Shown here: one piece after another, positions 15,587 through 62,717 of the stretch | Layout of the letters: every line of letters begins with the position of its first letter | Position numbering within the stretch: position 1 is the stretch's first letter | Assembly: GCA_001920415.1 (NCBI GenBank) | Contig: MNJR01000004.1 | Span: 1,479 to 65,478, forward strand | Reading direction: 5' to 3' | Source: Acidobacteria bacterium 13_1_20CM_3_53_8 | GTDB lineage: Bacteria; Acidobacteriota; Blastocatellia; Pyrinomonadales; Pyrinomonadaceae | Length of the DNA stretch: 64,000 bases | Notes under the pieces: generated by a model | The model's database searches: none | Told to the model about the DNA's origin: nothing | The model's input: only the letters and a program-made list of their open reading frames with translations | Made by a program: the position numbers and the translations under genes

Positions 15587-15613
15587 GTGTGAACTCCTGA
15601 TTGAAAGCTCAGC

Positions 15614-16177: not shown

Positions 16178-16187
16178 GTCGCTACTC

Positions 16188-18281
16188 CTATGGGCAAGGG
16201 TGAAATTGTCTCTGGTTTCTGTATTCATAACTTGTAATGAACGCATTGATGACTCCTGTATAATCACCTGTGCGGTTTAATACATCAGTCCAAAAGGCAA
16301 GTCCGCCTGGCTCTGGATCCCTTTGCAGGAAATTTCGATAGCAGTGTGAAACAAAAGCTCGGTTGTAAACCGACGGATCGAAATTGGGTGATCCTGGCGG
16401 GTTTGCCATTGCCGGGTCTGTCTGCTGAAACTCAGCTGATCTAAAGAATTCATTGGCGACCACATTGCGTTGCGAACCGATGCAATTCCTATCAAATTCG
16501 CATCTAGCGATCTGGGAAGTCCAGAAGTCCAATCCTCCTTGATCCGGCTCACGTGAGAGAAAATCCCAATACTGCTGCTTAACGAAACATCGCGCACCAT
16601 CAATCATGTTGTTACTGAGCGCAGAATCTCCTGGGCACGCGCCATAGTTCGAATTAACAGTACCATGTAAAGTAGGTAAACTATTAATCCCGGCTAAGAA
16701 GATTGAAGGTGTATTGGAAAATTGTAGCCGATACTTTACGAAAGATACAGATGGATCAAAAATCACTTGGCCGTTCCATCTCCATCCGATGTAACTGAAT
16801 TGATAATTATTTTCCGTAGCAAGTTTCAGCGGCTGCTCATACATGGGAAGTAATGGGTCACCCACATAATAATAGACATAAGTCTGGAAGCGGTCATCAA
16901 CAAAAAGCAGATCATTCATAGAAAAGTAGATGGAAGATGGGTCATATGAATCAAGGGTATCAGCAGGAGGATCGAAAGCATTATACGTTAGAACATTCCC
17001 TTGAGAGAAGTTTGGGGCTGGATGCGCAAAAATAGTTACGGCATCAGAATCGAGTTGCCATCCTGTATCCACTTGATCCTGTGATTGCCGCACTGTAATA
17101 CACTCAAAGTTGCCGTTTCTAACATCATTTACACGTTTACGGAATGCGCTCACAAACTGTTTGATTTTTATGCCGCTCTGTGCAGGATCAGATAGATACT
17201 GGACAGAAGGTATTTGTACACGGGCTGTAAATATTATTCCGTCGTCAGCTCCGCCTTGATAACAGCCTAATGAATATATAGCTCCTGGTAAACCAGTGGT
17301 GCAATGTCTGTCTCTACTTACTTGGTCTGATGTAGATTGTGCCGTAAAACTTGAAAGGGTAGGTAGAATCACATTTACATTTACGGATGCAGGAATACTC
17401 ATTCCACTTTCGGAATAGGTAACCGATGCCTTGTAGCTGCCGGGCTTCTTCCAGCGAATAATTGGTGACGGGATATTCGTTCCACCTACTAGATCGTAAT
17501 CAGTCCCCTGCTGTCCCGTAAAACTCCACGCGTAAGTACCGCTTCCCGCCGGAGAGAGACTAGCTTGTAACCTGACATCTGCACCGATAAGCGCATTTTG
17601 CGTAGTACCACTAAGATTACCGCTCACTCTCGGATTTGTAATGCTGAGAGTTGGATTCGGGGTGAACGTAATATCATCAAAGCCTATTCCATATACGTCT
17701 GTGACGTTGTAGATACGTATTCTTGTGATCTTAGTGCCAAAAGAGCTTAGGTCGTCAAAAAGTGGATAATAGCTTGAGCCATAGTAGTTATTGATAGGAA
17801 CGGTTCGCGCATAAGTTCCATTTTCCCAAATGTCAATCTGGGCAATAGTACCGTAGTTATCAGGGCCTACAATATAAAAAGAAAGATTCTTCACAGGCCA
17901 CTTAAAGTCGAGAATGAGTTCATGATGAGAGTCGTATCCAGTGCCAGAGGTAACGAAATTTGGCGACGACGAGGTAACACAATAGCCGCAATAATTCCAT
18001 GTATGTGAAGGATGGTAAAAATTATCCTCAGAAGAGAAAGTAACTTGTGGATATTGTGAGCCGACGACAGTGTTATTTGGAAGATTGTCAAAATTTATGA
18101 TAACCGGATCTATCGCATCAGGACCATTATCGTCTTGCGCTATCGTTAGTTCAGTAAATGTAAAGACCAGGGCTATACATAACAGCACATAAAGGGAAAT
18201 CTTAAGTCTAATAATAGATCGCAAAGCAAATGAAATTGAGGAAGGCGAAGAGAATATACTACGGAGGGGGAAGCGCATCAC
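16188..18281 (-). CDS. Secreted multidomain protein with Ig/PKD-like middle region and two C-terminal DUF4214 repeats
   Basis: N-terminal hydrophobic anchor. The DUF4214-type motifs are QQYWDFLSREPDQGGLDFWTSQI and CYRNFLQRDPEPGGLAFWTDVLN. It is a paralogue of the tail of the protein encoded at 22845-24398. Confidence 0.8.
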   Translation of the reverse strand: MMRFPLRSIFSSPSSISFALRSIIRLKISLYVLLCIALVFTFTELTIAQDDNGPDAIDPVIINFDNLPNNTVVGSQYPQVTFSSEDNFYHPSHTWNYCGYCVTSSSPNFVTSGTGYDSHHELILDFKWPVKNLSFYIVGPDNYGTIAQIDIWENGTYARTVPINNYYGSSYYPLFDDLSSFGTKITRIRIYNVTDVYGIGFDDITFTPNPTLSITNPRVSGNLSGTTQNALIGADVRLQASLSPAGSGTYAWSFTGQQGTDYDLVGGTNIPSPIIRWKKPGSYKASVTYSESGMSIPASVNVNVILPTLSSFTAQSTSDQVSRDRHCTTGLPGAIYSLGCYQGGADDGIIFTARVQIPSVQYLSDPAQSGIKIKQFVSAFRKRVNDVRNGNFECITVRQSQDQVDTGWQLDSDAVTIFAHPAPNFSQGNVLTYNAFDPPADTLDSYDPSSIYFSMNDLLFVDDRFQTYVYYYVGDPLLPMYEQPLKLATENNYQFSYIGWRWNGQVIFDPSVSFVKYRLQFSNTPSIFLAGINSLPTLHGTVNSNYGACPGDSALSNNMIDGARCFVKQQYWDFLSREPDQGGLDFWTSQIARCEFDRNCIGSQRNVVANEFFRSAEFQQTDPAMANPPGSPNFDPSVYNRAFVSHCYRNFLQRDPEPGGLAFWTDVLNRTGDYTGVINAFITSYEYRNQRQFHPCP

Positions 18282-36776: not shown

Positions 36777-37442
36777 ATGGATGACCTCAGATACCTTCTA
36801 GTCGAAAACGAAAGCGCGATAGAGGCGCATCGCTCTCGCCCGGAAATTCGCGCAGACGATTTCGATAACAGAGAGTGGAAGCACGCACGACCTACGCGAA
36901 TCAATCGCTATTGGTCTGGCGAGGAAGCGCCGGAATCTCGCCACGCAGAAGCTCGCCTGATCTGGTCTGACGCGGCGCTTTCTGTGCGCTTTGAGTGCAA
37001 CCAGCGAGAGCCGCTTGTTGTTAGCGCCACGCCACAGGCCGTTAAGAAGACAATAGGATTGTGGGACAGAGACGTTTGCGAAATCTTCGTCGCGCCCTAT
37101 GCGAGCGAGCCTGAAAAGTATTTAGAGTTTGAGGCCGCGCCAACAGGCGAGTGGATTGACCTTGCAATTCACTGGCGAGCGGAAGGGCGCGAGACCGACT
37201 GGAACTTTCATTCAGGCATGGAGGCATCCGCTCGCGTCTCTCACAACCACGTAACCATCGCCATGCGCATTCCCTGGGAAGCGTTCGGCCACAAACCGCA
37301 GGCCGGAGAGCGATGGCGCGCAAACCTCTTCCGCTGCGTTGGCCGTGACCCCACGCGCGGCTACCTAGCATGGCGACCAACGCACACGCCGCAGCCAAGC
37401 TTCCACGTCCCGCAGGCTTTCGGGTGGATGGATTTTAAGTGA
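36777..37442 (+). CDS. Carbohydrate-binding family 9 (CBM9/DOMON)-like protein
   Basis: Motifs LIWSDAALSVRFEC, LWDRDVCEIFVAP, YLEFEAAPTGEWIDL, RIPWEAF and GERWRANLFR. The start is 2 nt after the SDR stop. Confidence 0.6.
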   Translation: MDDLRYLLVENESAIEAHRSRPEIRADDFDNREWKHARPTRINRYWSGEEAPESRHAEARLIWSDAALSVRFECNQREPLVVSATPQAVKKTIGLWDRDVCEIFVAPYASEPEKYLEFEAAPTGEWIDLAIHWRAEGRETDWNFHSGMEASARVSHNHVTIAMRIPWEAFGHKPQAGERWRANLFRCVGRDPTRGYLAWRPTHTPQPSFHVPQAFGWMDFK

Positions 37443-37522
37443 TGAGTGATAAGAAAGTCTGGAGTAAGAAGAGAAGAAGCTGACAGCTAATAGCTATCAG
37501 TTATTAGCTTTTGACTCCAGAC
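37439..37522. repeat. Composite element: solo family-C half-arm (GTGATGAGTGATAAG) plus a family-F core inside a GTCTGGAGT/ACTCCAGAC hairpin
   Basis: agctgacagctaatagctatcagttattagcttttgactcc (37478-37518) is about 85% identical to 57129-57168. The CBM9 stop TGA (37440-37442) lies in the C-type arm. Confidence 0.7.
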
Positions 37523-37589
37523 TTTTTTACCACTATCTAGCATCTGACATCTGCTTTTTGTGTCTCTCTCAAAAATTCGTTAGGCCATC

Positions 37590-41491: not shown

Positions 41492-41651
41492 GGAGGGAGA
41501 ATGGAAGGGATGAGGGATGAGGGATGAGGGATGAAAAAGATGGTGATGAGTGCGGAGTGCAGAGTGATGAATAAGAAGCTCTTAATTCATCATTCTGCAC
41601 TCTGCGTTCTGCACTTTCTTCATCCTTCATCCCTCCTTTCATCCCTTCTTC
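41492..41651. repeat. Family-G nested hairpin: outer arms of (GGGATGA)n, inner arms GTGCGGAGTGCAGAGTGATGAAT
   Basis: Outer left arm: ggagggagaatggaagggatgagggatgagggatgagggatgaa. Outer right arm: ttcatccttcatccctcctttcatcccttcttc. An inner inverted repeat spans 41548-41614. The PilZ stop codon lies in the right arm. Confidence 0.75.
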
Positions 41652-42070
41652 ATAAGCTCTCTCAAATAAGTATTGAATTTCTCGCGTTCTTGTTCGCTTA
41701 TCTCAGTGATCTGCACGCCGACCAAATAACCTTTATCCGTCTCGCTTCTTTCCAGCTTTTCGTAGCGCACGGGCGCGACCCTCATCTCGACGGGGCCGTG
41801 CGGCGTCTCCATGACGACGAGCAGGGCGTGGCCTTCGCCCATCAGGTAGGAATCGTTTATGCGTATGGCAGGAACTATCAGAGCAAGGCCGCTCTCGCTA
41901 ACATCGTGCGTGAAGCCGTCGAGTTTGGGCAGGCGAACACGCCCCGGCGCTCTCACTTTCGGCTCGATAATCAGGACGCTGACGGGCAGGCGAACGCGAT
42001 GGCGCGGCGAGCGTCGGCGGTTGCCTACGAAGTTGCGCAGTAGCGCAATGATAGATCGGGTCAGTTCCAT
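41639..42070 (-). CDS. PilZ domain protein (c-di-GMP receptor)
   Basis: The RRRSPRHRVRLPV (RxxxR) and DVSESGLAL (D/NxSxxG) motifs are present with the expected spacing. Confidence 0.85.
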   Translation of the reverse strand: MELTRSIIALLRNFVGNRRRSPRHRVRLPVSVLIIEPKVRAPGRVRLPKLDGFTHDVSESGLALIVPAIRINDSYLMGEGHALLVVMETPHGPVEMRVAPVRYEKLERSETDKGYLVGVQITEISEQEREKFNTYLRELMKKG

Positions 42071-42077
42071 AAAAACA

Positions 42078-42214
42078 GTGATAAGTGATGAGTGATAAGT
42101 GATAAGAGGAAGAATACAGAAGTCAGGAGTCAGAATATGAAGCTATTATCTTCTGAATTCTGTATTCTCACTTCTGCGTTCCCTTCTTATCACTTATCAC
42201 TCATCACTTATCAC
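42078..42214. repeat. Family-C hairpin: perfect 29-bp arms of GTGATAA/GTGATGA heptads with a second inverted repeat in the loop
   Basis: gtgataagtgatgagtgataagtgataag (42078-42106) pairs with cttatcacttatcactcatcacttatcac (42186-42214). The inner repeat is agaatacagaa...ttctgtattct. Confidence 0.9.
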
Positions 42215-43044
42215 CTATTAAGCTGTCTGCCGTTAACGTCTGAGCTGTGTATGCCGTCGTTGTTTATCATGAATGAAAGGCGGCCTGTCTGGCCGTAGCG
42301 TTGCGGCTCTGCGTGACCCATAAAACTCTTGTGGTCGGAAGAGACTGTGAATTGAAAGTTGTAGCCGATTGATTCTGTCGCAATTGATTCCTGCGTCAGG
42401 TGGCCTGCGGCTATCAACTCTTGGAGGTTGCCGAACAGGCCGCTGTGCTGGATGCTGTACTTCAATTCGGCTTCGAGCACGCCCTGAAGCGCTGCCTGCA
42501 TGTCGCTGTGATGCGCGTTGATTCGCGCATCGAAGAAGAAGCGATTGCCGCCCTGTTTGACCACTCGTTCGTTCTCGTGATCGCCGACAATCCATTGTCC
42601 GTTTGAACGAATCAACGTGAGCGGCTCAGGCTGTTGTATTGCATCTCCGGGGTTCGCAGAAGCTTTAACGAAAACAGTCGCAGTGTCTACGCTCACCTGT
42701 TCGCCGCTGATTGTAATGTTATCGGGAACGCTCGACGCCATGCGCTCGAACTCCGGGCGAAGGTCATCGAACTCCTGATCCGTTAAGCCCTCAATCGCAG
42801 GCTTGTAAATAGAGATTGCGAACGCCTCGCGGAAGTGGCGCTCGCGCAGCAAGCGATAGAACTCGCGCACGGTCTCTGTAGGCGTGCGAGCCTGAGCCGC
42901 TGAAGAGCTTTGCGCGTTCGCAGCTTGCGGCGCTGGCTGCGAGTTTTGAGAAAGGGCTGCGACCGACGCTAAGATTAAGAGGAGCGCTGTTATGAACAGT
43001 CTTATGCAGTACGAGCGAAGAAACGTTCTGGATTTGAAGTGCAT
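42211..43044 (-). CDS. Secreted protein of unknown function
   Basis: 277-aa ORF with signal-like segment FITALLLILASVAALSQ. The stop codon is inside the family-C arm. Confidence 0.65.
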   Translation of the reverse strand: MHFKSRTFLRSYCIRLFITALLLILASVAALSQNSQPAPQAANAQSSSAAQARTPTETVREFYRLLRERHFREAFAISIYKPAIEGLTDQEFDDLRPEFERMASSVPDNITISGEQVSVDTATVFVKASANPGDAIQQPEPLTLIRSNGQWIVGDHENERVVKQGGNRFFFDARINAHHSDMQAALQGVLEAELKYSIQHSGLFGNLQELIAAGHLTQESIATESIGYNFQFTVSSDHKSFMGHAEPQRYGQTGRLSFMINNDGIHSSDVNGRQLNR

Positions 43045-43163
43045 TAAAAACCTCTGGCGGGTGAAATGAATCGGGGCGGGCGAGGACGAGCTTTCTCAAG
43101 CCGCAAGCGCGCCCGCCACTCGCTAAGAAGTATTTAACGAGAAAAAGGTTGGCAGGTCAAGAA

Positions 43164-43274
43164 GAAGGCAAAAGTAAAAAGGCAAAAGTTAGGCGGAAGC
43201 CATTTTTAATTTATAATTCACGCCTGCAAGGCGTGCCTTCCCTTTTGACTTTTTACTTCTACCTTTTACCTTTT
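43164..43274. repeat. Family-D hairpin (AAAAGGCAAAAGTAAAAAG-type arms)
   Basis: Left arm: gaaggcaaaagtaaaaaggcaaaagt. Right arm: cttttgactttttacttctaccttttacctttt. The loop core ggcggaagccatttttaat is shared with the copy at 60556. Confidence 0.75.
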
Positions 43275-45604
43275 AGCGAGAGAATGTCCGCGTAGGCGTG
43301 CGGGTTCGCGCCCGGATTCGCCTTCAGGAAATCTTCCGTTGGCGGGAAGAAAGGATTGTGCACGCTGGCCCAGTTGGCTACGCGGTCTGTGAAAGCCTTG
43401 AGCCAGGAGACGCCCGTCATGAAAGCTATGACAATTCCGGCTAAAGCGCCGCCAGCTATATAACCCGAAGCCATCAACACGCCCGGACTCTTATCGCCTT
43501 CTGCGACCAGTTCTTCTTCCGACAGTTTCTTGTGCGCGAGCCGCTTGCGCAATCGGTTATCAACGAGCCAGCGAATGAAACCGCCGATCAGGATAGGACT
43601 CGAAGACGAGAGCGGCAAATAGACTCCGACGGCGAAGGCGAGCGACGGGAGGCCGCTCATCTCCAACACGATTGCTATCATCACGCCGAGCAGGACGAGT
43701 CCCCACGGCAATCTTCTATCAAGAATGCCTTTGATGATATAGCTCATCAGCGTAGCCTTCGGCGCTTTGAATTTATCAACTTGCGAGCCATCGGGACGCG
43801 TCTTAACTTTGCCGTTGATGCCTGGGTCAACAATGTAAACGGGCACGCCCTGTTCGTTGACAAGATACTTCGTTGCCGTACCGCTCTCCTGATCAACTCT
43901 CTGCCAGACGCGATAAGTGTTTGTGTCGTTGACGCTCTGTGGCCCCGTCAGTCTCTCCGTCCCGCCGAGTTGTGAAGGATCAACGCGCGTGCCGACAGGC
44001 AAAGTATCTCCGACCGGGGCATAAACCGTTCCCGCGTCGTTCAAGCGTAGAAGGATTGGCCCAAGCACTAGCGCGGAAGCTAGTGCGCCTACGAGAATGG
44101 CTATCTGCTGGCTGCTGGGCGTAGAGCCAACGAGGAAGCCTGTCTTCAAATCCTGCGAAGTCGTGCCGCCGTTCGACGCTGCGATGCAGACGATTGCGCC
44201 GATTGATAACGCGGTGACGTAATACTGTGGGCCTGTCCAGCCGACCAGTACGAATATCAAGCAGGTCAATAGAAGCGTTGCGACCGTCATGCCCGAAATC
44301 GGATTTGAAGATGAGCCTATCTCGCCGGTCAGACGCGAAGAGACCGTTACGAACAGGAAGCCGAAAGCTACTATCATCACAGCACCAGCGAATGCCACGA
44401 AGATGTTGTGCTGAAATCCCAACTGCGGGAAGGCCATTATCATTCCGATGAGCGCGATTATTCCGGCCAGCACGAACTTCATCGAAAGGTCGCGGTCTAT
44501 GCGCGGCGCTTGCTCGTTCGCAGCCGCGCTGCTGCTTCTTAGGTCGCGCAAGCCGCCTTTCAATCCGTGCCAGATGACTGGCAGCGAACGCACAAGGCTG
44601 ATGATGCCGCCCGCAGCCACAGCGCCCGCGCCTATGTAGAGCACGTAAGCGTTGCGCACATCGTCCGGCCCCATCTTGCTAATCAGCGTATCGCCCGGCG
44701 GCAGAACGGTTGTTAATGAGTCCCCGAAAAATTTTATGGCCGGAATCAGAACAAGGTAAGCCAACACGCCGCCCGCGCACATTATAGAAGAGATGCGTGG
44801 GCCAATGATGTAGCCCACGCCCAATAGCGTCGGGTTGACCTCAACCGACACGGAGCCTCCTGTGTATGGTGCCCCCCAGATTTTTTCGGGCGTCTCTTTC
44901 CAGCCGCTGAAGACTCTTAGAATAGTGTAATAGATGAAACCTATGCCGAAGCCTGCGAAGATAGTCTTCGCGCCAATGTTCGCGGTGTCCTCAAGTTTCG
45001 CCGCGTCCGCCTTTGCGTCCGTCGCAGCCGCAGCTCTAGATTCATCCGACGCGCCTGCCTTCAACACTTCCGCGCATGCAGTCCCTTCCGGGTATTTCAG
45101 AAGGCCGTGCTGCTGGACTATGAGCGCGCGGCGAAGGGGAATCATCATGAGGATTCCTAGAAGCCCGCCCAGGATTGCTACGAGCATGACGCGCGTGAAC
45201 TCGAGGTCGAAGCCAAGAATCATAATCGCAGGCATCGTCACGCCTATGCCGAACGCGATTGATTCGCCAGCCGAGCCAGCCGTCTGCACTATGTTGTTCT
45301 CTAAAATCGTGGCGTCTCTTAAACCGAATTTAGAGAGCATGCGAAAGAGTGTGATTGAAATGACCGCCACGGGAATCGAAGCGCTCACCGTCAGGCCGAC
45401 TTTCAAGACCAGATAGAGTGACGATGCGCCGAAGATAATCCCAAGAATCGTGCCCATGACAAGTGGCAGCGCGGTCAACTCGCGCAAGTGCGTCGCCGTA
45501 GGTATGTACGGGCGGAACGCTGCAAGATATGGGTTCTCAGGCTTGGCCCCGACTATATCAGGGTATTCGTTTGTGGCAGCAATGTTCGGGTCTATAGTCG
45601 CCAT
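43259..45604 (-). CDS. OPT-family oligopeptide transporter
   Basis: About 16 TM segments. The N-terminus ..YIPTATHLRELTALPLVMGTILGIIFGASSLYLVLKVGLTVSASIPVAV is typical of bacterial OPT proteins. I prefer the ATG at 45604, which has a GGAGG upstream; a GTG at 45625 is the alternative. Confidence 0.8.
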   Translation of the reverse strand: MATIDPNIAATNEYPDIVGAKPENPYLAAFRPYIPTATHLRELTALPLVMGTILGIIFGASSLYLVLKVGLTVSASIPVAVISITLFRMLSKFGLRDATILENNIVQTAGSAGESIAFGIGVTMPAIMILGFDLEFTRVMLVAILGGLLGILMMIPLRRALIVQQHGLLKYPEGTACAEVLKAGASDESRAAAATDAKADAAKLEDTANIGAKTIFAGFGIGFIYYTILRVFSGWKETPEKIWGAPYTGGSVSVEVNPTLLGVGYIIGPRISSIMCAGGVLAYLVLIPAIKFFGDSLTTVLPPGDTLISKMGPDDVRNAYVLYIGAGAVAAGGIISLVRSLPVIWHGLKGGLRDLRSSSAAANEQAPRIDRDLSMKFVLAGIIALIGMIMAFPQLGFQHNIFVAFAGAVMIVAFGFLFVTVSSRLTGEIGSSSNPISGMTVATLLLTCLIFVLVGWTGPQYYVTALSIGAIVCIAASNGGTTSQDLKTGFLVGSTPSSQQIAILVGALASALVLGPILLRLNDAGTVYAPVGDTLPVGTRVDPSQLGGTERLTGPQSVNDTNTYRVWQRVDQESGTATKYLVNEQGVPVYIVDPGINGKVKTRPDGSQVDKFKAPKATLMSYIIKGILDRRLPWGLVLLGVMIAIVLEMSGLPSLAFAVGVYLPLSSSSPILIGGFIRWLVDNRLRKRLAHKKLSEEELVAEGDKSPGVLMASGYIAGGALAGIVIAFMTGVSWLKAFTDRVANWASVHNPFFPPTEDFLKANPGANPHAYADILSLKGKR

Positions 45605-49060: not shown

Positions 49061-49132
49061 TCCACGAAGTCACACGAAACAACACGAAAACTGATTGAGT
49101 TCTCTTCGTGTTGTTTCGTGTGACTTCGTGGA
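49061..49132. repeat. Family-B hairpin, perfect 28-bp arms with a 16-nt loop
   Basis: tccacgaagtcacacgaaacaacacgaa (49061-49088) pairs with ttcgtgttgtttcgtgtgacttcgtgga (49105-49132). Confidence 0.9.
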
Positions 49133-51838: not shown

Positions 51839-51936
51839 GCGTTGTCTTCGTTGACACGCATTACTGGGTCGCCTCAATCAATCCACTAGACCAGTCCAAT
51901 AACAAGCCCAGCATGAAAGGTCTTCGATGGCATTAA
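51835..51936 (+). pseudogene. Truncated PIN-domain (VapC-like) toxin; only 33 codons remain
   Basis: MSVVFVDTHYWVASINPLDQSNNKPSMKGLRWH*. The first ~20 residues match the PIN N-terminal strand with the catalytic Asp (FVDT.yw.A..n..Dq), and the rest of the domain is absent. Confidence 0.55.
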
Positions 51937-54044
51937 CGAATCTGCTCGGACAGACGCTGGACGAAAAATATCTGATTGAGAGAGAGCTAGGCCGTGGCGG
52001 GATGGGCGCGGTCTATCTGGCGACGCACGTGGGCACGGGGCGCGTCGTAGCTGTGAAAGTCATCGCGCCTGAGTTCATGCGTCACAGCGAGTTCGTAGAG
52101 CGTTTCAAGCGCGAGGCGCGCGCAGCCGGTCGCCTTCGCCACCCGAACGTTGTTGATGTGACGGACTTCGGCTTTGCTCGCGTAGGAGCGGAGCGCGTGG
52201 CCTATTTAGTGATGGAATATCTGGACGGCTGCACGCTGGCAGAGATTCTGGCCGAAGAGTCAAGCTTGCCGCTCAACTGGGTCGTTGACATACTTGAACA
52301 GACTTGCTCGGCTGTGGAGAGCGCGCACCGGCAGGGCATCATTCACCGCGATTTGAAGCCCGACAACATCTGGCTTGAGCCGAACCAGCGCGGCGGCTAC
52401 ACGGTCAAGGTTCTGGACTTCGGAATCGCCAAACTCGCGGAGCAAGCAGATCAGGGACTGGAAGAGCAGGCGGCTCACACTCCAAACAAGTCCGATTCAT
52501 CAACCAACTCTCAAACGCATCACTCCTCGTCGCTCGAACTCCCAACGCTTGCGCTTGCATCTTCGTCAACGCCGACTGACGCAGCCGAAAGCACAGGCGC
52601 GACTTCGCACGTGCGACAGACAGCAAGCTCTTCATTGCTCGATACAGAATTGAACGAGTCTGCCACGCTGTTGCAGCCTGCATCAACAAAGAATACAGAG
52701 ACTGCGGAAGCGGCGACGCGGCTTCTTTCGCACGCAGTTGATGACGAAGAAGCAGGTACGCGCATACTTGAGCCGCGCACAACAACGGAGCGCAACTTGT
52801 CGCACACTGCTTCTGCCAGCAGCCTCACGCGCGTTGGCGCGACGCTTGGCACGCCGCTCTACATGTCGCCCGAACAGTGGCGCGGCGAACAATTGGACGC
52901 ACGCTCGGACATCTACTCATTGGGCGTCATAGCCTATCAGATGCTCTCTGGCCGCACGCCCTTCAAGGGCGACCTCACGACCGTCAGCCGCGAGACGCAA
53001 GCCGCCCCGCCTCCGCTGCTCAAGATGAAGAATGTGCCGAAGAAGTTCGCGCGCGTTGTGCTGTCTGCGCTGGCCAAGAAGCCGGAAGATCGTCCATCTA
53101 CAGCCCTGGCGCTCGCAAGCGCCCTGCGCGCACACTCGGAAAGCGCAATCATGTTGCTGCGCCACGCACTAACTCTCTTTAGCGAACACATGCCCGTCTT
53201 CCTGCGCCTGGCGCTTCTCGTCAGCATCCCTATGATCGTAGTCAACTTGATGCAACTGGCTCTCGGCCTGTTCGTCGCGCGGCAGGCAGCAGTAAGCAGA
53301 ACGGTAGCCACAGGCGGCGGCCTTGTCTTGAGCGTAAGCAAGACCACAACCACGATTGCCAGTTTTGTGCTGAGCCTGATTACACTGCTCGTAGCAATCC
53401 TGACTGCGGCCATACTGACGGGCGTCACAACGCGGCTGGTCACGCAACTGCTGGCTCAGCCTCTTCGCCCCATTCAACTGCGCCCGGCTTTCAGTGCGCT
53501 CAAACGACGACTGCGCCCCTTTCTGACTACAGCCTTTCTGGTCAGCTTGCTCTCTATGATAGGAATGATTCTGGGCTTAATCCCCGGCCTTATAGTTCTG
53601 GTCAACTACTCAATGGTCACGCCCGTGATGATGATGGAGGAGGGCATGAGCGGGCGCGCAGCCATGAGACGCGCGCGAACTCTTTCAAAGCGATCAAGGC
53701 CGACCGTTATCTTCATAATCTTATTTCAAATCGCCGTGCCTATCCTGACAGCGCTCCTGCTCGCGTTTCTAATCATATCCGTCATCAAAGCCTTCGCCAT
53801 GTCGGGCAGCCACGCCAACACTTTCAGCCTTATCTACCAAGTGATACAGATGCCCATGAACATACTGTTCGGCTCCTTCAGCGCCATCGTCACCGCTCTG
53901 CTTTACTTGAAAACTAGATTGGCCGGAGGCGAGACTTTGAGGGATGCTTTAGGACAGTTCGATTCCGAAGAGTTGCCGCAACGCCGCTGGCAAAAGCGCA
54001 TGCGCGAACGCCTTCAAGTAACCATCAGACAAACACGACACTGA
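51927..54044 (+). CDS. Ser/Thr protein kinase with a low-complexity linker and a multi-pass C-terminal membrane domain
   Basis: Kinase motifs GRGGMGAVYLA, VAVK, HRDLKPDNI, DFGIAK and SPEQ, followed by 5-6 hydrophobic helices. Confidence 0.9.
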   Translation: MALTNLLGQTLDEKYLIERELGRGGMGAVYLATHVGTGRVVAVKVIAPEFMRHSEFVERFKREARAAGRLRHPNVVDVTDFGFARVGAERVAYLVMEYLDGCTLAEILAEESSLPLNWVVDILEQTCSAVESAHRQGIIHRDLKPDNIWLEPNQRGGYTVKVLDFGIAKLAEQADQGLEEQAAHTPNKSDSSTNSQTHHSSSLELPTLALASSSTPTDAAESTGATSHVRQTASSSLLDTELNESATLLQPASTKNTETAEAATRLLSHAVDDEEAGTRILEPRTTTERNLSHTASASSLTRVGATLGTPLYMSPEQWRGEQLDARSDIYSLGVIAYQMLSGRTPFKGDLTTVSRETQAAPPPLLKMKNVPKKFARVVLSALAKKPEDRPSTALALASALRAHSESAIMLLRHALTLFSEHMPVFLRLALLVSIPMIVVNLMQLALGLFVARQAAVSRTVATGGGLVLSVSKTTTTIASFVLSLITLLVAILTAAILTGVTTRLVTQLLAQPLRPIQLRPAFSALKRRLRPFLTTAFLVSLLSMIGMILGLIPGLIVLVNYSMVTPVMMMEEGMSGRAAMRRARTLSKRSRPTVIFIILFQIAVPILTALLLAFLIISVIKAFAMSGSHANTFSLIYQVIQMPMNILFGSFSAIVTALLYLKTRLAGGETLRDALGQFDSEELPQRRWQKRMRERLQVTIRQTRH

Positions 54045-54200
54045 AAAGCAGTGACAAGTGACTAGCAAGAGAGAATTTTTAATCTTTAATCTAAATCTTT
54101 TTCAGTTTACAGAAATAAGCTAATTGCGTTCACTTAATTTATGTAAATGAAAAATTAAAAGTGATTCCTGCTCGTCACTTGTCACTTGTCACTGCTTTTC
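54043..54200. repeat. Hairpin with GAAAAGCAGTGACAAGTGAC arms (GTGACAA heptads) and an AT-rich ~118-nt loop between convergent genes
   Basis: gaaaagcagtgacaagtgac (54043-54062) pairs with gtcacttgtcactgcttttc (54181-54200), a perfect 20 bp. Confidence 0.85.
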
Positions 54201-56127: not shown

Positions 56128-57081
56128 TCAAACCATCGCCAGCGTGCGACGCACGCCGCCGCGCTCGAAATAGTCGCTCGCGCGCCGAACGTCGCGCTCA
56201 ATCTGTTTCCTCAAATCTTCCAGCCCGGCGAACTTGCGCTCGTCGCGCAAGCGATGAAGGAAGCGCACGCGAACCACGTCGCCGTACAAATCCCCTGACC
56301 AATTCATTACGAACGTTTCGACGGAAGGTTCCGCCGCATCATTAAACGTAGGGCGCGTGCCGACGTTTGTGAGACTTCGCCGCCACGCGCCCTCAACCAA
56401 TGTAGCCGTAACGTAAACTCCTGCACGTGGTATGACGCGGTTCTGCGCTCTGAGGTTGGCCGTTGGAAAGCCCAGACTGTGACCGCGCGCGTCGCCGTGA
56501 ATGACGCGCCCTTCCACGCCGTAAGGGCGGCCAAGCATACGGCGCGCAAGGTTGACTCGCCCTTCTGAGAGCAACTGTCGAATACGGCTTGAGCTGATGC
56601 GCTGGCCGCGCAGTCGAACCTCCGGCACTTCGTCAGCGAAAAATCTTAGCCGCTTACTCACCTTTCTCAGGAGCTTTATGTTCCCCTCGCGGTCATGACC
56701 GAACGCGAAGCCGCGTCCCAGATAAACCTCTTTCGCGTGAAGTCGCTCTTCAACCACGTCGCGCAAGAAATCTTCCGCGCGAATCTGCGAGAAGGCGCGC
56801 GTGAAACGTATGACTATAGCCTGCTCAACGCCCAGCACGCCTAGCGCCTCTATCTTCTGATCCAGAGTTTGCAGAAGCGGAGGCGCAGATTCTGGATGAA
56901 GCACAGCGCGCGGGTGAGGATCGAAAGTTATCACGGTCGGGACCGACTTCATTGCGCGCGCACGTTCCACAACAGTTCTCACAATCAACTGATGCCCCAG
57001 GTGCAGCCCGTCGAACACGCCCAGCGTCAGCACCGTTGGCCGCGCAATCTCCGCATTGTCAGTTCCGTGAAAAAGCTTCAT
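56128..57081 (-). CDS. ribF: Bifunctional riboflavin kinase / FMN adenylyltransferase
   Basis: Motifs LTLGVFDGLHLGHQ, GFPTANL, and the C-terminal riboflavin kinase segment ...EVHLLDF-like (VETFVMNWSGDLYG). Confidence 0.95.
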   Translation of the reverse strand: MKLFHGTDNAEIARPTVLTLGVFDGLHLGHQLIVRTVVERARAMKSVPTVITFDPHPRAVLHPESAPPLLQTLDQKIEALGVLGVEQAIVIRFTRAFSQIRAEDFLRDVVEERLHAKEVYLGRGFAFGHDREGNIKLLRKVSKRLRFFADEVPEVRLRGQRISSSRIRQLLSEGRVNLARRMLGRPYGVEGRVIHGDARGHSLGFPTANLRAQNRVIPRAGVYVTATLVEGAWRRSLTNVGTRPTFNDAAEPSVETFVMNWSGDLYGDVVRVRFLHRLRDERKFAGLEDLRKQIERDVRRASDYFERGGVRRTLAMV

Positions 57082-57083
57082 AA

Positions 57084-57204
57084 GTGATAAGTGATGAGTG
57101 ATAAGTGATAAGTGATAAGAGAGAAGATAGCTGACAGCTATTAGCTAATGGCTATTAGCTTTGACTCCAATCTTTCTTATCACTTATCACTCATCACTTA
57201 TCAC
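57084..57204. repeat. Family-C hairpin with a family-F core in the loop
   Basis: The left arm is five GTGATAA/GTGATGA heptads (57084-57118) and the right arm is cttatcacttatcactcatcacttatcac (57176-57204). The loop holds agctgacagctattagctaatggctattagctttgactcc. Confidence 0.9.
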
Positions 57205-57954
57205 TAAATTATCGTATGCCCACTCAACGCCGCGTGGGAGTTTAGGGGAGTCACGCTCGTGCCGAACATCGTGCGCGATGTGCGTAAAGAAAGTTCTACG
57301 AGGTTTTAATTCACTCACATATTCAAGCGCGCGTTCTACCCACAGGTGCGTGGGGTGTTCGCGGAAGCGCAGGCAGTCGAGCACAAGTACATCAAGACCA
57401 CTGAGCGCAGCAATCGTGGCGGGCGGAATCTCGTTCAAATCAGTTGCGTAGGCGAAGTCGTTGAAGCGATATGCGATGACTGGCAGGCGACCGTGAATCA
57501 CCTCAAGGGGCGTGACCTGCAAATCAGGGCCGATGCAGAATGGCGCGCCCGCGACGACCGTGTGCGCAAGGATTTGCGGCAGGCCGCCGCCGAAGTATGT
57601 AGGCTCGAAGACGTACTTGAAGATGCGGCGAATGTCTACCCAGGCGCGCTCGTTGGCATAAACGCCCAAAGCGCCGTGCCGAAAGTTTAAGGGGCGAATG
57701 TCATCGAGTCCGAAGATGTGGTCGGCGTGACAGTGCGTGATGAGAACGGCGTCTAGCCACTTTATTTTTTGACGAAGAGCTTGCTGTCGAAAATCCGCCG
57801 AAGTGTCAACGAGAACCGTCTGCCCTCCATGCTCTATCAGAACCGAAACGCGCAGCCGCTTGTCGCGCGCATCATCCGACACGCACGTCTCACACTCGCA
57901 CCCGATGGACGGCACGCCTGTAGAAGTTCCAGTTCCGAGAAAGGTCAGCTTCAT
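57187..57954 (-). CDS. MBL-fold metallo-hydrolase (PhnP/GPMB-like)
   Basis: Motif THCHADH (HxHxDH). The last five codons (VISDE) and the stop lie inside the family-C arm. Confidence 0.85.
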   Translation of the reverse strand: MKLTFLGTGTSTGVPSIGCECETCVSDDARDKRLRVSVLIEHGGQTVLVDTSADFRQQALRQKIKWLDAVLITHCHADHIFGLDDIRPLNFRHGALGVYANERAWVDIRRIFKYVFEPTYFGGGLPQILAHTVVAGAPFCIGPDLQVTPLEVIHGRLPVIAYRFNDFAYATDLNEIPPATIAALSGLDVLVLDCLRFREHPTHLWVERALEYVSELKPRRTFFTHIAHDVRHERDSPKLPRGVEWAYDNLVISDE

Positions 57955-58035
57955 CAGTTTTCAGTTTTCAGTTTTCAGTTTTCAGATGAAGCGAAAAGCT
58001 TTTACTTAAAACTGAAAACTGAAAACTGAAAACTG
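57955..58035. repeat. Family-E hairpin: (CAGTTTT)4 / (AAAACTG)n arms
   Basis: cagttttcagttttcagttttcagttttcag (57955-57985) pairs with ctgaaaactgaaaactgaaaactg (58012-58035). It fills the whole gap between two minus-strand genes. Confidence 0.9.
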
Positions 58036-58036
58036 T

Positions 58037-58621
58037 TTACTTCCCTCCAATGATGTCGCGCCCTGTGAAGCCGCGTCGTGGCTGTGGCGATTGCGTGAGC
58101 GAGACGTATTGCATGCGCAGGTCTGAGAGCAGACCGTCCAGGATTTGCTGTTCCTGCGCGGCCAAGTTGCCGCGTGTCTTCTGGCGCAGCATGCCCAGGA
58201 TGTCTATCCAGTGTTTGGCAAGCTCCAGGTCAACGTCGCGCTCCCCTGTCACGGGATGCTCCATCATGCCCAGCGAACTGGCCGCGTTCGACGCGATTGA
58301 CATGATGAAGTTGACAAAGCTGGCAGGATCATTCGCGCCCGGAATCTCTTCCGCCTCGCCTTCCGTCTCTGTGCTTCTTTCCGCATGCGATTGAGTTTCT
58401 TCGATAGGCGCGGGCTGCTCGGCTTCAGCTTCTGCCGCCGCAGAAGCTGAAGGCTGCGTGCTTGCTGTGACTGAAGCTGAAGCCACTTGCGGTTCGACAG
58501 CCGGTTGTGTGGCCGCATCGGTTTGCGCTTCCGTCTCCTCGCGCGGCACTTCGCGCGGCGTGCCGTCCGGGTTGAAGAGACGGCGGTCTGTGACTTTGAA
58601 AATGGGTTGTTCTTCGCTCAT
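58037..58621 (-). CDS. DUF1844 domain protein
   Basis: Acidic low-complexity N-terminal half, then FVNFIMSIASNAASSLGMMEHPVTGERDVDLELAKHWIDILGMLRQKTRGNL. Confidence 0.75.
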   Translation of the reverse strand: MSEEQPIFKVTDRRLFNPDGTPREVPREETEAQTDAATQPAVEPQVASASVTASTQPSASAAAEAEAEQPAPIEETQSHAERSTETEGEAEEIPGANDPASFVNFIMSIASNAASSLGMMEHPVTGERDVDLELAKHWIDILGMLRQKTRGNLAAQEQQILDGLLSDLRMQYVSLTQSPQPRRGFTGRDIIGGK

Positions 58622-58757
58622 CTTAACTCTTCCCTGAAAGACGCAGAAGCCTCAACCGCGTAGGCCGCTTCCGAAGCCATGCGCCATAATCTATGAAATT
58701 TCATTTGATGTCTTGATGGTAACATCCCTATCTGCGCGCTCGCAAGAAAGCTAAAAA

Positions 58758-58888
58758 CAGTTTTCAGTTTTTAGTTTTCAGTTTTCAGAGTAAGAACCCG
58801 GCTTGGAGGATGCGAACCAAAGCTTTAGACTCTAACCCTGGACTGTTGAGATACGAACTTAAAACTGAAAACTAAAAACTGAAAACTG
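58758..58888. repeat. Family-E hairpin, second copy, with a 76-nt loop in a divergent intergenic region
   Basis: cagttttcagtttttagttttcagttttcag (58758-58788) pairs with ctgaaaactaaaaactgaaaactg (58865-58888). It ends 5 nt before the mazG ATG. Confidence 0.9.
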
Positions 58889-58893
58889 CTCTT

Positions 58894-59730
58894 ATGTCCG
58901 ATTCATTTGATGATCTGGTTGCGTTGATGGCTCACTTGCGCTCCGCTGCGGGGTGCCCGTGGGATAGGGAACAGACCTTTGAGACTCTTGCGCCTATGCT
59001 GGTTGAAGAGGCTTATGAAGTTTTCGAGGCTGCGCAGGTGGCAAGCGAAGGTCGTACAGAAAACCTTCGGGACGAACTCGGCGACCTTCTTTTCCAGATA
59101 CTCTTTTATGCTCAAATTGCGTCGGAGCGTAATGAGTTCACGATTGACGACGTTGCGCGCGCAGTCCACGCGAAGATGGTGCGCCGTCATCCGCATGTGT
59201 TCGGTGATGCACAGGCGGAGACTTCCCCAGAAGTTCTGCGTAACTGGGAAGAGATAAAAGCTGTAGAGAAGCGCGCTGCGGGCGACGCCGAGCGACAGGA
59301 CAAATCTTTGCTTAATGAGATTTCATTGAAGACTCCGGCGCTTGTTGAAGCCCGAAAACTTTCGTCCAGAGCAGCGCGAGTCGGCTTCGACTGGAAGCAG
59401 TTGGAAGACATCTTCGATAAGCTGCACGAAGAGATAGAGGAACTACGCGGTGCCATACGCGAGCGCGATGAATCCAGTTCAGGCGAGGCATCCGAGACGC
59501 GCGTGAATGAAGAGATAGGAGATGTGCTCTTCGCAGTTGCGAACATCGCGCGCCATTTGAAGGTCGAGCCTGAATCAGCCCTGAAACTCACAAACCGCAA
59601 GTTCCGCCGCCGCTTTCGTCACATCGAGCGAAAATTAATGGAACAAGGTCGAACACTCGAAGACGCCACGCTCGACGAGATGGAGGCGCTGTGGCAGGAA
59701 GCGAAAAAGCAGGTGACAAGTGATGAGTGA
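58894..59730 (+). CDS. mazG: Nucleoside triphosphate pyrophosphohydrolase MazG
   Basis: Motifs CPWDREQTFETLAPMLVEEAYEV and ELGDLLFQ, plus a second EEIGDVLFAV repeat. Confidence 0.95.
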   Translation: MSDSFDDLVALMAHLRSAAGCPWDREQTFETLAPMLVEEAYEVFEAAQVASEGRTENLRDELGDLLFQILFYAQIASERNEFTIDDVARAVHAKMVRRHPHVFGDAQAETSPEVLRNWEEIKAVEKRAAGDAERQDKSLLNEISLKTPALVEARKLSSRAARVGFDWKQLEDIFDKLHEEIEELRGAIRERDESSSGEASETRVNEEIGDVLFAVANIARHLKVEPESALKLTNRKFRRRFRHIERKLMEQGRTLEDATLDEMEALWQEAKKQVTSDE

Positions 59731-59844
59731 TAAGTGACAAGAAAAAGACGAACTGCTATCTTATTTGCTGCGACCTGTTGGCGGTCTGATGTGGTCGCAA
59801 CTCCTCTTGTTGTTTCTTATCACTCATCACTTATCACTCATCAC
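59713..59844. repeat. Family-C-type hairpin (GTGACAA/GTGATGA/GTGATAA heptads), imperfect
   Basis: gtgacaagtgatgagtgataagtgacaag (59713-59741) pairs with cttatcactcatcacttatcactcatcac (59816-59844). The MazG codons VTSDE and its stop lie in the left arm. Confidence 0.8.
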
Positions 59845-59855
59845 GAGGTATTGAT

Positions 59856-60557
59856 ATGGCAATGATTCAGTTCGTTCAGAATTACGATGATCTTTCGACG
59901 GATAGAGGCTTTCAGTTCAAGTTCCACTGCGACAAATGCGGCAACGGTTTCATGTCGCACTTCCAGCCTTCTACGCTTGGCACGGCAGGGTCGCTGCTGC
60001 GCGCCGCAGGAGATTTATTCGGCGGCTGGGCTAGCTCCGCAGGAAACTCTGCATACGAGATGCAGCGCGCCGTAGGCGGCAAGGCGCACGACGAGGCTCT
60101 GATGAAAGCCGTCGCAGAGGGCAAGGAACATTTTCATCAATGCTCGCGCTGCGGTCGCTGGGTCTGCCCGGAAGTATGCTGGAACGCTAACGCAGGTCAA
60201 TGCGAAGATTGTGCGCCCGATTTTCAAGAGGAGATGGCTTCGTCGCACGCTCATGCCAAAGCCGAAGCTGCGCGCCAGCAACTCTACGAGCGAGCGCAGC
60301 AAACAGATTACGCCTCGAACATTGATATGGGCGTAGACGCTCACGTTCGCGCGCCATCGCCAGCAGCGCAGCAAAAGGCAGCCGCCGCTGCCAACTGCTC
60401 GTCGTGCGGCGCTGAAGTCGGCAAGGCGAAGTTCTGTCCCGAATGCGGCGCGCCCACCAAGCCACAGAAGCTCACCTGCCCCGGCTGCGGCCATCAGCCC
60501 GAAGGCTCGCCTAAATTTTGTCCTGAATGCGGAATGAAACTGCCGCTCATAAGTTAA
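59856..60557 (+). CDS. Zinc-ribbon domain protein
   Basis: CxxC pairs: CDKCGN..., CSRCGRWVCPEVC, CSSCGAEVGKAKFCPECGAP and CPGCGHQPEGSPKFCPECG. Confidence 0.7.
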   Translation: MAMIQFVQNYDDLSTDRGFQFKFHCDKCGNGFMSHFQPSTLGTAGSLLRAAGDLFGGWASSAGNSAYEMQRAVGGKAHDEALMKAVAEGKEHFHQCSRCGRWVCPEVCWNANAGQCEDCAPDFQEEMASSHAHAKAEAARQQLYERAQQTDYASNIDMGVDAHVRAPSPAAQQKAAAAANCSSCGAEVGKAKFCPECGAPTKPQKLTCPGCGHQPEGSPKFCPECGMKLPLIS

Positions 60558-60675
60558 GGCAAAAGGTAAAAGTAAAAAGGCAAAAGTGCGGCGGAAGCCA
60601 ATTTTTTAATAAAAGATGGTTTCAGCCTTCCTTTTGCCTTTTACCTTTTTCCTTTTTACTTCTCCCTTTGCCTTC
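60556..60675. repeat. Family-D hairpin between convergent genes
   Basis: Left arm: aaggcaaaaggtaaaagtaaaaaggcaaaagt. Right arm: cttttgccttttacctttttcctttttacttctccctttgccttc. The loop core is gcggaagccaattttttaat. Confidence 0.8.
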
Positions 60676-62232: not shown

Positions 62233-62560
62233 GAAGACAAGCTCGTAAATTCTCCCCCAAAATTTTCCCGCTTCGCGCCACGCGCAGGGGGAGAGAGCGC
62301 GTTAATCTCTGCCGCATGAGGCGCGTTGTAAATTCAGAACGCGCGCCCCTTTCAATCGGCTCTATTTTGATGAACTCAAGCAAGAGCGGGTTGGCCTCTG
62401 TAAACAGAGGCTTTACCTCTCTTGCCCCTCGATTCCATAGCTTCGCCGCTTTATGTCACGATTTTGCTCAACTTTCTTAACTTCATTGTCAAACTTTAAG
62501 GAAAAGAGGCGCAAGAGAGTTGGCGACCAAGGAGAGAAAACTAAGGGGACATTTCAAAAT

Positions 62561-62691
62561 CCTCTTAGTGAGCTTAAGTATTTCTCTTTGCGCCTTTGCG
62601 AGAACATGCAATTCTCTCTAAGCTCAAGATTGATGATAATTGAGGGTTCACGCTGTAGAAGCAAAGAGAAATACTTAAGCTCGCTAAGAGG
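62561..62691. repeat. Family-I element, copy 2: 31-bp inverted repeats (1 mismatch) around a 69-nt interior
   Basis: cctcttagtgagcttaagtatttctctttgc (62561-62591) pairs with gcaaagagaaatacttaagctcgctaagagg (62661-62691). Confidence 0.85.
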
Positions 62692-62717
62692 TTGAGCAGT
62701 TGTTGCGTTTTTAGCTC

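Follow-up and report, generated by a model that had tools for sequence, protein, structure and literature searches.

A 64-kb window of a Pyrinomonadaceae genome (Acidobacteriota, Blastocatellia) contains hairpins built from inverted arrays of 7-nucleotide (nt) units, the arms of which hold the stop codons and last codons of unrelated genes, among them those for an MBL-fold hydrolase, MazG and an OPT transporter. Probably, these fast-turning inverted heptamer arrays fill the spacers between genes and overwrite gene ends wherever they bear a stop codon in the direction of a ribosome entering the hairpin (inward stop). In the Pyrinomonadaceae lineage, spacers are filled by such long hairpins from stop codon to start codon. 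An initial annotation, which had recorded the overlap of arms and gene ends, posed as alternatives that elements inserted into gene 3' ends and replaced the native termini, or that the arms expanded up to the open reading frames (ORFs). Both occur, in different genes: replacement in case of the OPT transporter and abutment in case of a CBM9-like protein, a protein of 277 amino acids (aa), RibF and a DUF1844 protein. What the initial annotation missed is that the overlap of ORF and array hinges on stops which the heptamer provides in each of the three frames, and that the C-terminal tail of the MBL-fold hydrolase and both arms of the adjacent hairpin, as judged from species comparison, evolve in concert.

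The window was compared with 80 orthologous loci from different species of the Pyrinomonadaceae (81 loci, 1.3 Mb), all sequences compared being metagenome-assembled. Arrays were located by Tandem Repeats Finder and by a lag-7 self-match scan, both of which agree. Metagenome loci of more distant genomes (L081–L139; 5.7 vs. 27 arrays per 100 kb) served as repeat-poor comparators and were not used for unit changes. Orthologue tails were read to the first in-frame stop, and all trees were constructed by neighbour-joining only.

All arms in the window are made up of short tandem runs of 7-nt units (GTGATAA/GTGATGA, GGGATGA, AAGGATG, AAGGCAA, AAATCGT, AAAGTCC, CAGTTTT and others), and each run pairs with an inverted counterpart composed of the same unit. 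Such pairs are often nested, e.g., an outer GTGATAA with an inner CAGAAGT pair at 42077–42218, or an outer GGGATGA with an inner GAGTGCA pair at 41498–41649. The window has 17 arrays, each of them in a spacer or at the boundary of a gene; its first 33 kb are devoid of arrays. Across the 81 loci, 353 arrays of period 7 were found, compared to 21 of period 8 and 3 after block shuffling. Only 39 of the arrays are located deep within called ORFs, at least 92 make recognisable inverted pairs, and 68 of the 1014 called stop codons fall within an array. The hairpins have folding energies of −40 to −77 kcal/mol (z = −3.7 to −13) and stems of up to 30 bp. Twelve gene 3' ends face a heptamer hairpin between 33 and 61 kb of the window: the stop codon is inside the array in eight of these, within 5 nt in two and farther away in the other two.

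Known RNA families or signals do not describe these hairpins. A scan of the whole window against Rfam at the gathering threshold yielded no family covering them, the sole match being an Acido-Lenti-1 RNA at 8317–8364. A role as intrinsic (Rho-independent) terminators was rejected, as not one of 20 terminator-like sites falls on a heptamer hairpin and no T runs follow the arms. The motif AAGCTT is about sevenfold enriched in loops and was considered as a common core; since it occurs in only 8 of 92 hairpins, it is not a defining one. Many loops span only 10–25 nt and lack a common core. In several hairpins, the centre reads AAAAGCTTTT or similar, in the window at 57990–58005 and 58820–58830 and also in L001, L009, L012, L017, L030 and L047.

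The junction between the MBL-fold hydrolase gene and ribF illustrates the arrangement. The hydrolase ORF (255 aa, 57187–57954, minus strand) ends with GTG ATA AGT GAT GAG TGA, which lies wholly in the arm 57176–57205; the stop codon TGA occupies 57187–57189, and the codons of the terminal V-I-S-D-E (57190–57204) give the protein the end N-L-V-I-S-D-E. The assignment of the last five codons and the stop to the arm in the initial annotation is therefore correct, with 15 coding nt plus the stop codon being part of the stem. The plus strand of 57176–57205 reads CTTATCACTTATCACTCATCACTTATCACT, corresponding on the minus strand to AGTGATA AGTGATG AGTGATA AGTGATA AG, i.e., four GTGATAA/GTGATGA units, which form the 5' arm on the minus-strand mRNA. 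Over 30 nt, this arm is 100 % complementary to its partner at 57083–57112 (3' arm on the mRNA), and its 30-mer occurs four times in the window at no more than one mismatch, compared to none in 100 shuffles. The partner arm ends 2 nt before the ribF start codon (57079–57081), and no Shine-Dalgarno sequence is present between the two. The inner part (57113–57175, minus strand) contains a nested AGCTATT-type array at 57136–57160. As RNA, the entire spacer folds with −63.5 kcal/mol (z = −11.3), the stem extending from the V codon to 2 nt before the ribF start.

Among the 80 species, the tail of the MBL-fold hydrolase follows the local heptamer. GTGATGA units go along with the tail SDE, GGGATGA with RDEG, AATGATG with NDE, TTTTGAA with NDEF, GTACTGA with SDEY, GTGCTGA with SAEC, and AAGGATG with QG or KDEG. 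Species without an array at the stop codon have tails such as ..VVEA, ..VVESA, ..VIE or ..VIQ, and one species (L069) has an ATGA stop/start overlap of the hydrolase gene with ribF and no hairpin. Distant homologues end soon after the AYDGLxhxh motif, homology ceasing at residue 251–253; full-length NCBIfam models stop at residue 251–252 of 255, and S-D-E thus lies outside the family core. The last 18 nt of the hydrolase gene are complementary to the 45 nt upstream of ribF at 15 or more of 18 positions in 15 of 74 species, as compared to 3.6 % of cross-species pairings with different tails, while an internal control from the coding sequence never exceeded 11 of 18. In the closest relative (L001), MazG ends GVISDE and the hydrolase LVISDE, two unrelated proteins thus having VISDE in common. 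According to a neighbour-joining tree, SDE is ancestral to the sampled clade of about 80 species and not a recent replacement.

The hairpin is retained while its sequence is turned over. Taking at least six stacked pairs in RNAfold as the criterion for the stem boundary, a robust stem is present between the hydrolase gene and ribF in all 76 species with a spacer of 15–400 nt; it begins at or upstream of the hydrolase stop codon in 59 of the 76, and the ribF ATG is mostly found 5–11 nt past the stem. RNAalifold analysis of 15 species with simple hairpins at this junction predicts 23 pairs, 20 of which have compensatory double changes. In the covariation count, 91.9 % of cells are paired, with 0 of 500 shuffles reaching the observed values and slid controls yielding 27–48 %. 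Comparison of the window with L001 shows two modes of change. In the hairpin between the DUF1844 and MBL-fold hydrolase genes, the loop is kept and every unit is changed in both arms (CAGTTTT to GAGTCTT), whereas between the hydrolase gene and ribF the outer arms are kept and the inner module is swapped, an AAATCGT array taking the place of 57113–57175. Moreover, copies at different loci share non-heptamer loop sequence. From these L001 comparisons and the loop sequence common to separate loci it follows that three processes are at work: arms evolve in concert in place, modules are swapped, and copies are made from one locus to another.

The extent to which an array enters a gene depends on whether its unit carries a stop codon. 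Since 7 and 3 are coprime, a single stop triplet per unit is enough to close every reading frame within 21 nt. In most families (GTGATAA, GTGATGA, GGGATGA, AAGGATG, AATGATG and others), a ribosome that enters the hairpin, from whichever side, reads the strand bearing this triplet. An inward-reading stop only was found in 48 of 92 hairpins (expected fraction 0.21 for random heptamers of the same composition) and an outward-reading stop only in 22 (0.21 expected); 19 hairpins have a stop on neither strand (0.40 expected) and 3 on both (0.18 expected). Arrays with an inward stop begin within the ORF in 57 of 77 cases, reaching as far as −22 nt (19 coding nt plus the stop codon). By contrast, arrays without an inward stop are concentrated between −2 and +8 nt relative to the stop codon's end, with only 2 of 55 reaching deeper. 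From this dichotomy it follows that arrays run toward the gene as far as possible and cross into it only with a stop of their own.

A second case of overlap is provided by MazG, whose gene ends GTG ACA AGT GAT GAG TGA at 59713–59730, within the plus-strand arm 59713–59748 (GTGACAA/GTGATGA/GTGATAA), in agreement with the initial annotation. The codons for V-T-S-D-E (59713–59727) and the stop codon (59728–59730) belong to the arm, and the protein ends K-Q-V-T-S-D-E. Repeat-free orthologues end ..WQEAKKQ-stop, so that MazG of the window is longer by the five residues VTSDE. NCBIfam MazG models end at residue 271–273 of 278, which, as for the MBL-fold hydrolase, confirms that the tail residues lie outside the family hidden Markov models. 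In many relatives, the first TGA of the array serves as the MazG stop (CAG TGA CAAGTGAC..). The window reads CAG G TG ACA AGT GAT GAG TGA, i.e., it has one extra base, which shifts the frame, and the array catches the ribosome five codons later.

The MazG gene (start at 58894) is preceded by a plus-strand hairpin of the CAGTTTT family (58752–58894), the 3' arm of which ends 5 nt before the start codon. Downstream of MazG, the partner arm (59802–59844, plus strand) ends 11 nt before the start of a gene for a 233-aa double zinc-ribbon protein (59856–60557). The latter is absent from L001, where the MazG hairpin directly precedes a convergent M48 peptidase gene. In the left arm and loop of the MazG hairpin, a GTGACA-N17-TATCTT motif is found (59734–59762; GTGACAAGAAAAA..TGCTATCTT), with TG before the second hexamer; its position is conserved in L009, L010, L013, L016, L019, L026, L033 and L057. 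A promoter consensus scan of the window returned promoter-like sites at chance level, and this motif is the only one backed by conservation. It looks like a promoter of the zinc-ribbon gene, in which case that transcript would hold the 3' arm only. A further hairpin of the AAGGCAA family (60556–60674, plus strand) begins inside the TAA stop codon (60555–60557) of the zinc-ribbon gene and represents a copy homologous to that at the end of the OPT transporter gene.

In case of the OPT transporter, the array takes the place of a conserved part of the protein. In agreement with the initial annotation, which had the gene terminate within or at an arm, the stop codon (43259–43261) and 14 coding nt lie in a CCTTTTA array (43241–43275); the stop is in the main stem. 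The minus-strand arm 43238–43275 (AAAAGGT/AAAAGTN) holds the stop and the K-G-K-R codons; its partner (43165–43188, minus strand) belongs to the AAGGCAA family and has the arm and about 20 nt of loop sequence outside the heptamers (GGCGGAAGCCATTTT) in common with 60556–60674. Of 120 OPT homologues, 118 continue past ..DILSL with IPFLVLMLLLYLAGREMILAGKAKER (..LSLIPF..LLY.VGRE..), including relatives at 90 % identity or more (P0511, P0512 and L140). The transporter of the window ends KGKR-stop, encoded by the AAGGTAA/AAGGCAA hairpin, and lacks the conserved 26-aa terminal (last transmembrane) helix. DNA alignment reveals that homology is lost exactly after ..CTCTCGCTA, with the hairpin in place of 78–87 nt of coding sequence (26–29 codons). 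L140 has a GTGGCAA hairpin after the intact stop codon, which is likewise replaced in the window. Provided that the contig is correctly assembled, OPT would thus represent a true replacement of a native terminus. Just downstream of this hairpin, the window (43045–43090) and L140 (3030–3070) have in common a conserved TTGACC-N17-TTAAAT motif with a G+C-rich hairpin behind it; this is likely the promoter or leader of the neighbouring 277-aa protein gene.

The remaining gene ends display shallower overlap or none. The stop codon of the 277-aa protein gene (42211–42213) is, as initially reported, inside a perfect 30-nt arm (42185–42214, 100 % complementary), which is part of a minus-strand array of four GTGATAA units (42185–42218). 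The tail ..NR-stop is native and common to L140. The partner arm (42077–42107, minus strand) contains a 30-mer identical to the arm 57083–57112 next to ribF and ends 6 nt before the PilZ start codon (42068–42070), with the inner CAGAAGT hairpin at 42117–42176. The PilZ stop codon (41639–41641) and about 8 coding nt were also rightly placed in an arm (41620–41649, minus strand; 80 % complementary; GGGATGA/AGGATGA), which holds the K-K-G codons and is paired with 41498–41534 around an inner GAGTGCA hairpin (41548–41615); the native end is ..KK-stop, KKG of the window is longer by one residue, and a member of the 90 % cluster has KKE. For the ABC1/UbiB kinase, the claimed overlap proved real and shallow, with the stop codon (54189–54191) and 2 coding nt in a GTCACTT array (54174–54193). 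Here, the outer GTGACAA units of the minus-strand arm 54150–54193 hold the stop and 2 nt of an added Q codon, extending the native ..YLEK-stop by one residue to ..LEKQ-stop.

The partner of the latter arm (54050–54086, plus strand) starts 5 nt past the stop codon (54042–54044) of a convergent second Ser/Thr kinase gene (51927–54044). This stop lies near the arm, not within it as had been claimed, and no alignable orthologue tail of the kinase was found in the 80 loci. The claim that the CBM9-like gene terminates at an arm holds only marginally: its stop codon (37440–37442) is in the first periodic unit (AAGTGATGAGTGATAAG) of a plus-strand composite hairpin (37437–37534; GTGATGA/GTGATAA unit, then AGTCTGG and AGCTAAT inner arms), 2 nt outside the paired stem (37445–37534). 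Its native tail ..DFK (FGW.xF.-stop) is covered by the Pfam model, and the array adjoins it. The hairpin between the DUF1844 and MBL-fold hydrolase genes (57954–58035, minus strand; CAGTTTT family, no inward stop) is located 1 nt past the DUF1844 stop codon (58037–58039) and adjoins the hydrolase start (57952–57954). The DUF1844 tail ..GGK-stop and the RibF tail ..AIV-stop are both native, the arrays only adjoining or sharing the stop. Alignment with orthologues, proposed in the initial annotation as a means to detect replaced or truncated termini, thus reveals extension of MazG (by five residues), ABC1 and PilZ (by one each) and replacement in OPT, whereas CBM9, the 277-aa protein, RibF and DUF1844 retain native ends.

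Among known systems, the TAACTGA repeats are the closest precedent, and the same rule of stop codon overlap was stated there for the Beggiatoaceae. These are tandem direct repeats of a single 7-nt unit in intergenic regions of Beggiatoaceae, Cyanobacteria and Bacteroidetes (MacGregor 2015, PMC4679880). In forward orientation they bring a stop in each frame, they extend into the upstream ORF by at most about 18 nt (13 cases), they are located a few nt before start codons usually without Shine-Dalgarno sequence, and one indirect repeat and no predicted secondary structure were reported (PMC4679880). The arrays described here are alike in their tandem 7-nt intergenic unit, the three-frame stop, the limited ORF overlap (19 coding nt plus the stop) and their position before starts without Shine-Dalgarno sequence; moreover, the CAGTTTT family reads AAACTGA on the other strand, 1 mismatch from TAACTGA. 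They differ in comprising dozens of families, none of them TAACTGA, in their inverted arrays, nested stems of 20–30 bp and covarying arms, in the phylum (Acidobacteriota), and in C-terminal tails that track the unit across species.

Repetitive extragenic palindromes (REPs) are mobilised by REP-associated tyrosine transposases (RAYTs). They and their composites (bacterial interspersed mosaic elements; REPINs) in Enterobacteria and Pseudomonas resemble the present hairpins in being abundant extragenic palindromes, often paired to hairpins and near stop codons. REPs are described as imperfect palindromes of 20–40 nt whose sequence is conserved within a family and which have a GTAG/CGTC end (PMC3733652), and many are located within 15 nt of stop codons, stall ribosomes, lower translation and stabilise upstream mRNA, according to PMC12306157 (citing Liang et al. 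2015). In contrast to REPs, the arms found here are periodic heptamers varying by locus and species without a common head, and the stop codon is inside the stem and not upstream of it. No RAYT is seen in the 64 kb of the genome that the window covers. Correia elements of Neisseria and the Rickettsia palindromic elements are short dispersed inverted repeats that can be located at or in gene ends and can alter termini or add residues; both have a full-length consensus, and Correia elements also have target duplications. With MITEs (miniature inverted-repeat transposable elements), the present elements share terminal inverted repeats and dispersed homologous copies, but they have no fixed consensus, only a periodic arm with in-place concerted evolution, and no target duplication was seen. 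The short tandemly repeated repetitive (STRR) sequences of cyanobacteria are tandem heptanucleotide repeats in direct arrays, over-represented in non-coding DNA. STRRs are not known as paired inverted arrays overlapping stop codons; the likeness consists in tandem heptamers over-represented in the non-coding DNA of one lineage. A general excess of heptameric simple sequence repeats in bacteria is mentioned in PMC4692102. A literature search for inverted heptamer-array hairpins in Acidobacteria or Pyrinomonadaceae returned no description, and these hairpins appear to be undescribed.

The arrays turn over quickly by gain, loss and homogenisation of units in both arms, by swapping of inner parts and by copying of whole elements between loci. 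The observations fit a scenario in which they would spread until purifying selection on the flanking genes halts them. An array with an inward stop may overwrite dispensable last codons, up to about 19 coding nt; the overlap would be tolerated because such an array always supplies a new stop within 7 codons, while an array without an inward stop would have to halt at the native one. Thus, the last 1–6 residues of unrelated proteins (VISDE, VTSDE, KKG, KGKR, ..Q) would be repeat-encoded and change with the local heptamer, mostly as neutral passengers. After a frame-shifting indel such as that in MazG, they would serve as a fail-safe, and occasionally a real protein part would be lost, OPT being an example. 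Where neighbouring genes are co-directional, the upstream stop codon is buried in the stem, together with the 20–30 nt just 5' of a downstream start without Shine-Dalgarno sequence. One may speculate that the hairpin is probably kept for an RNA-level role, candidates being a coupling or unmasking of the next start that depends on translation, mRNA protection along with ribosome stalling of the REP type, or processing by RNase III.

Several points weigh against this interpretation. Gene ends in the 81-locus statistics were called heuristically by the longest ORF, and much of the data stems from two or three junctions that recur in related species, so that the counts are phylogenetically non-independent. 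The truncation of OPT rests on one metagenome-assembled contig. SDE persists in the MBL-fold hydrolase where the GTGATGA array is gone, with synonymous changes only (AGC GAC GAG TAG/TAA), and this old tail may be protein-selected, native or the seed of the array. According to the initial annotation, presence of the same C-terminal residues in orthologues without adjacent repeats would mean coincidental overlap; for the hydrolase this is partly the case, because SDE is ancestral and persists without the array. Starts without Shine-Dalgarno sequence are common even where no array was detected (214 of 256). Finally, the proteins scanned in the 64-kb window include no transposase or RAYT, inspection of the flanks of 57080–57205, 57954–58035 and 43165–43275 revealed no target-site duplication, and no enzyme or mechanism making or moving inverted arrays was found in the analysis.

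It is conceivable, though somewhat doubtful, that the hairpins are instead selfish, MITE-like non-autonomous elements which insert at gene 3' ends and replace the termini, their built-in stops limiting the damage, so that the overlap would be an insertion scar. In its favour, arms and loop sequence outside the heptamers recur at separate loci, two loci have the same 30-mer with its variant units in identical order, close relatives differ by swapped inner modules, and at the OPT gene a copy of the AAGGCAA family replaces 78 nt of coding DNA together with the GTGGCAA hairpin present in the 90 %-identical L140. However, neither target-site duplications at the junctions read nor a transposase within 64 kb go along with these copies, many loops of 10–25 nt have no common core, and the same junction bears a hairpin in 76 of 76 species. 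Furthermore, change proceeds by single units in both arms around a loop that is retained, which points to in-place concerted evolution rather than re-insertion. A different origin, by slippage of a heptamer spanning the native last codons and the stop, would make the arm a copy of the gene end and its residues native. The conserved ..AIV-stop of RibF is followed in several species by in-register units (..ATA GTC TGA, then AGTCTAG AGTCTGG and further ones), the 277-aa protein gene ends AGG TGA TAAG in L140 with one GTGATAA unit versus four in the window, and V-S-D-E-stop itself is G(TGAGTGA)x2, with SDE being ancestral in the hydrolase tree. Such seeding is nevertheless unlikely as the general explanation: the tails of MazG, ABC1, PilZ and OPT are absent from repeat-free orthologues, and it leaves unexplained both the inverted partner arm and the identical arms and common loops at unrelated loci. 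Very improbable is mere coincidence or an annotation effect, with native C-termini resembling the repeat or ORFs over-extended into it. The native tails of CBM9, the 277-aa protein, RibF and DUF1844, the ABC1 overlap of only 2 nt and the kinase stop outside its arm would agree with it, but no earlier in-frame stop exists and the ORFs do enter the arms. Overlap reaches 19 nt and depends on the unit having a stop, tails covary with units, two unrelated proteins share VISDE in L001, and orthologue comparison contradicts coincidence for the MBL-fold hydrolase, MazG and OPT.

A selected translation device, in which the stop codon in the 5' arm lets the terminating ribosome melt the stem and expose a start without Shine-Dalgarno sequence beyond the 3' arm, or in which the stem stalls ribosomes like a REP, is rather doubtful. 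The overlap would then serve a function instead of being a by-product. Such a device would be in accordance with the strong covariation and with a geometry kept despite turnover (stem at or before the stop in 59 of 76 species, ribF ATG mostly 5–11 nt past it), with the ATGA overlap in place of the hairpin in L069, and with all of 80 starts with an array within 12 nt lacking a Shine-Dalgarno sequence. The position of TAACTGA repeats just upstream of starts without Shine-Dalgarno sequence and the stalling of E. coli ribosomes by REPs within 15 nt of the stop (PMC12306157, citing Liang et al. 2015) point in the same direction. Yet the same hairpins are found between convergent genes (54050–54193) and upstream of the first gene of a unit (58752–58894), families without an inward stop halt short of the stop codon, and starts without Shine-Dalgarno sequence are general in these genomes. 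Hairpins at convergent and divergent junctions, stop-free families and this general lack of Shine-Dalgarno sequences argue against a pure coupling role; moreover, covariation could stem from templated repair between the arms and not from selection. Unlikely as well is a more far-reaching version, a lineage-wide selected boundary module whose 5' arm would end any frame, whose stem would mask the next start without Shine-Dalgarno sequence until melted by the terminating ribosome, and whose arms and tails would be matched by templated (quasi-palindrome) repair. If true, it would be an alternative to both Shine-Dalgarno initiation and ATGA overlap coupling, and non-coding repeat dynamics would write the C-termini of hundreds of Pyrinomonadaceae proteins.

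Apart from the heptamer arrays, the window harbours other palindromic elements. The Acido-Lenti-1 RNA (RF01687; 8317–8364, minus strand; 46 bits vs. a gathering score of 37) is located in a 300-nt spacer (8261–8561) dense with palindromes (..ATAAAGCCCAGCGCGTGAGCGCTGGG..), and similar hairpins (ATAGCCCAGC..GCTGGG) occur in the spacers between the MBL-fold hydrolase gene and ribF in L003, L010 and L016. A second, non-heptameric family of dispersed palindromes (5505–5557, 11262–11343, 34089–34225 and 49061–49132; a related copy in L070) has arms of about 28 nt (TCCAC..CACACGAAAC(A/G)ACACGAA) with decamer periodicity. A third family (GTCAGTACCGCCTGCGGTAGCGGGCGGGT) is found at 5384–5462 and 32992–33144, with related copies in L040, L052, L055 and L077; its copy at 32992–33144 encloses an AAGGCAA heptamer hairpin (33025–33107), i.e., one element is nested within another. 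A composite palindromic element is present in two copies of opposite orientation at 35701–35830 and 62550–62700 (..CTTTGCTTCTACAGCGTGAACCTGCAATTCTC.. and ..GCAAAGAGAAATACTTAAGCTCGCTAAGAGG..). At 14000–18000, the G+C content is 0.44–0.49 compared to about 0.55 elsewhere. This segment spans a 601-nt spacer (15587–16187) and the gene for a 697-aa DUF4214 protein, and the drop may mark acquired DNA.

For annotation, the arrays mean that a repeat can encode the C-terminal residues of proteins in this lineage, that such residues can be the same in unrelated proteins and vary from strain to strain, and that a repeat can cost a protein a conserved transmembrane helix. In metagenomics, they represent assembly hazards and, at the same time, useful strain markers. 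From an evolutionary perspective, they offer a clean natural case of a non-coding periodic repeat and an overlapped coding tail changing in concert, with the structure conserved in about 80 species and the sequence replaced. With respect to gene expression, stems of 30 bp, in which the stop codon and the stretch preceding the next start are buried, are likely to affect translation or the processing or stability of mRNA in the Pyrinomonadaceae, which are abundant in soil and poorly studied.

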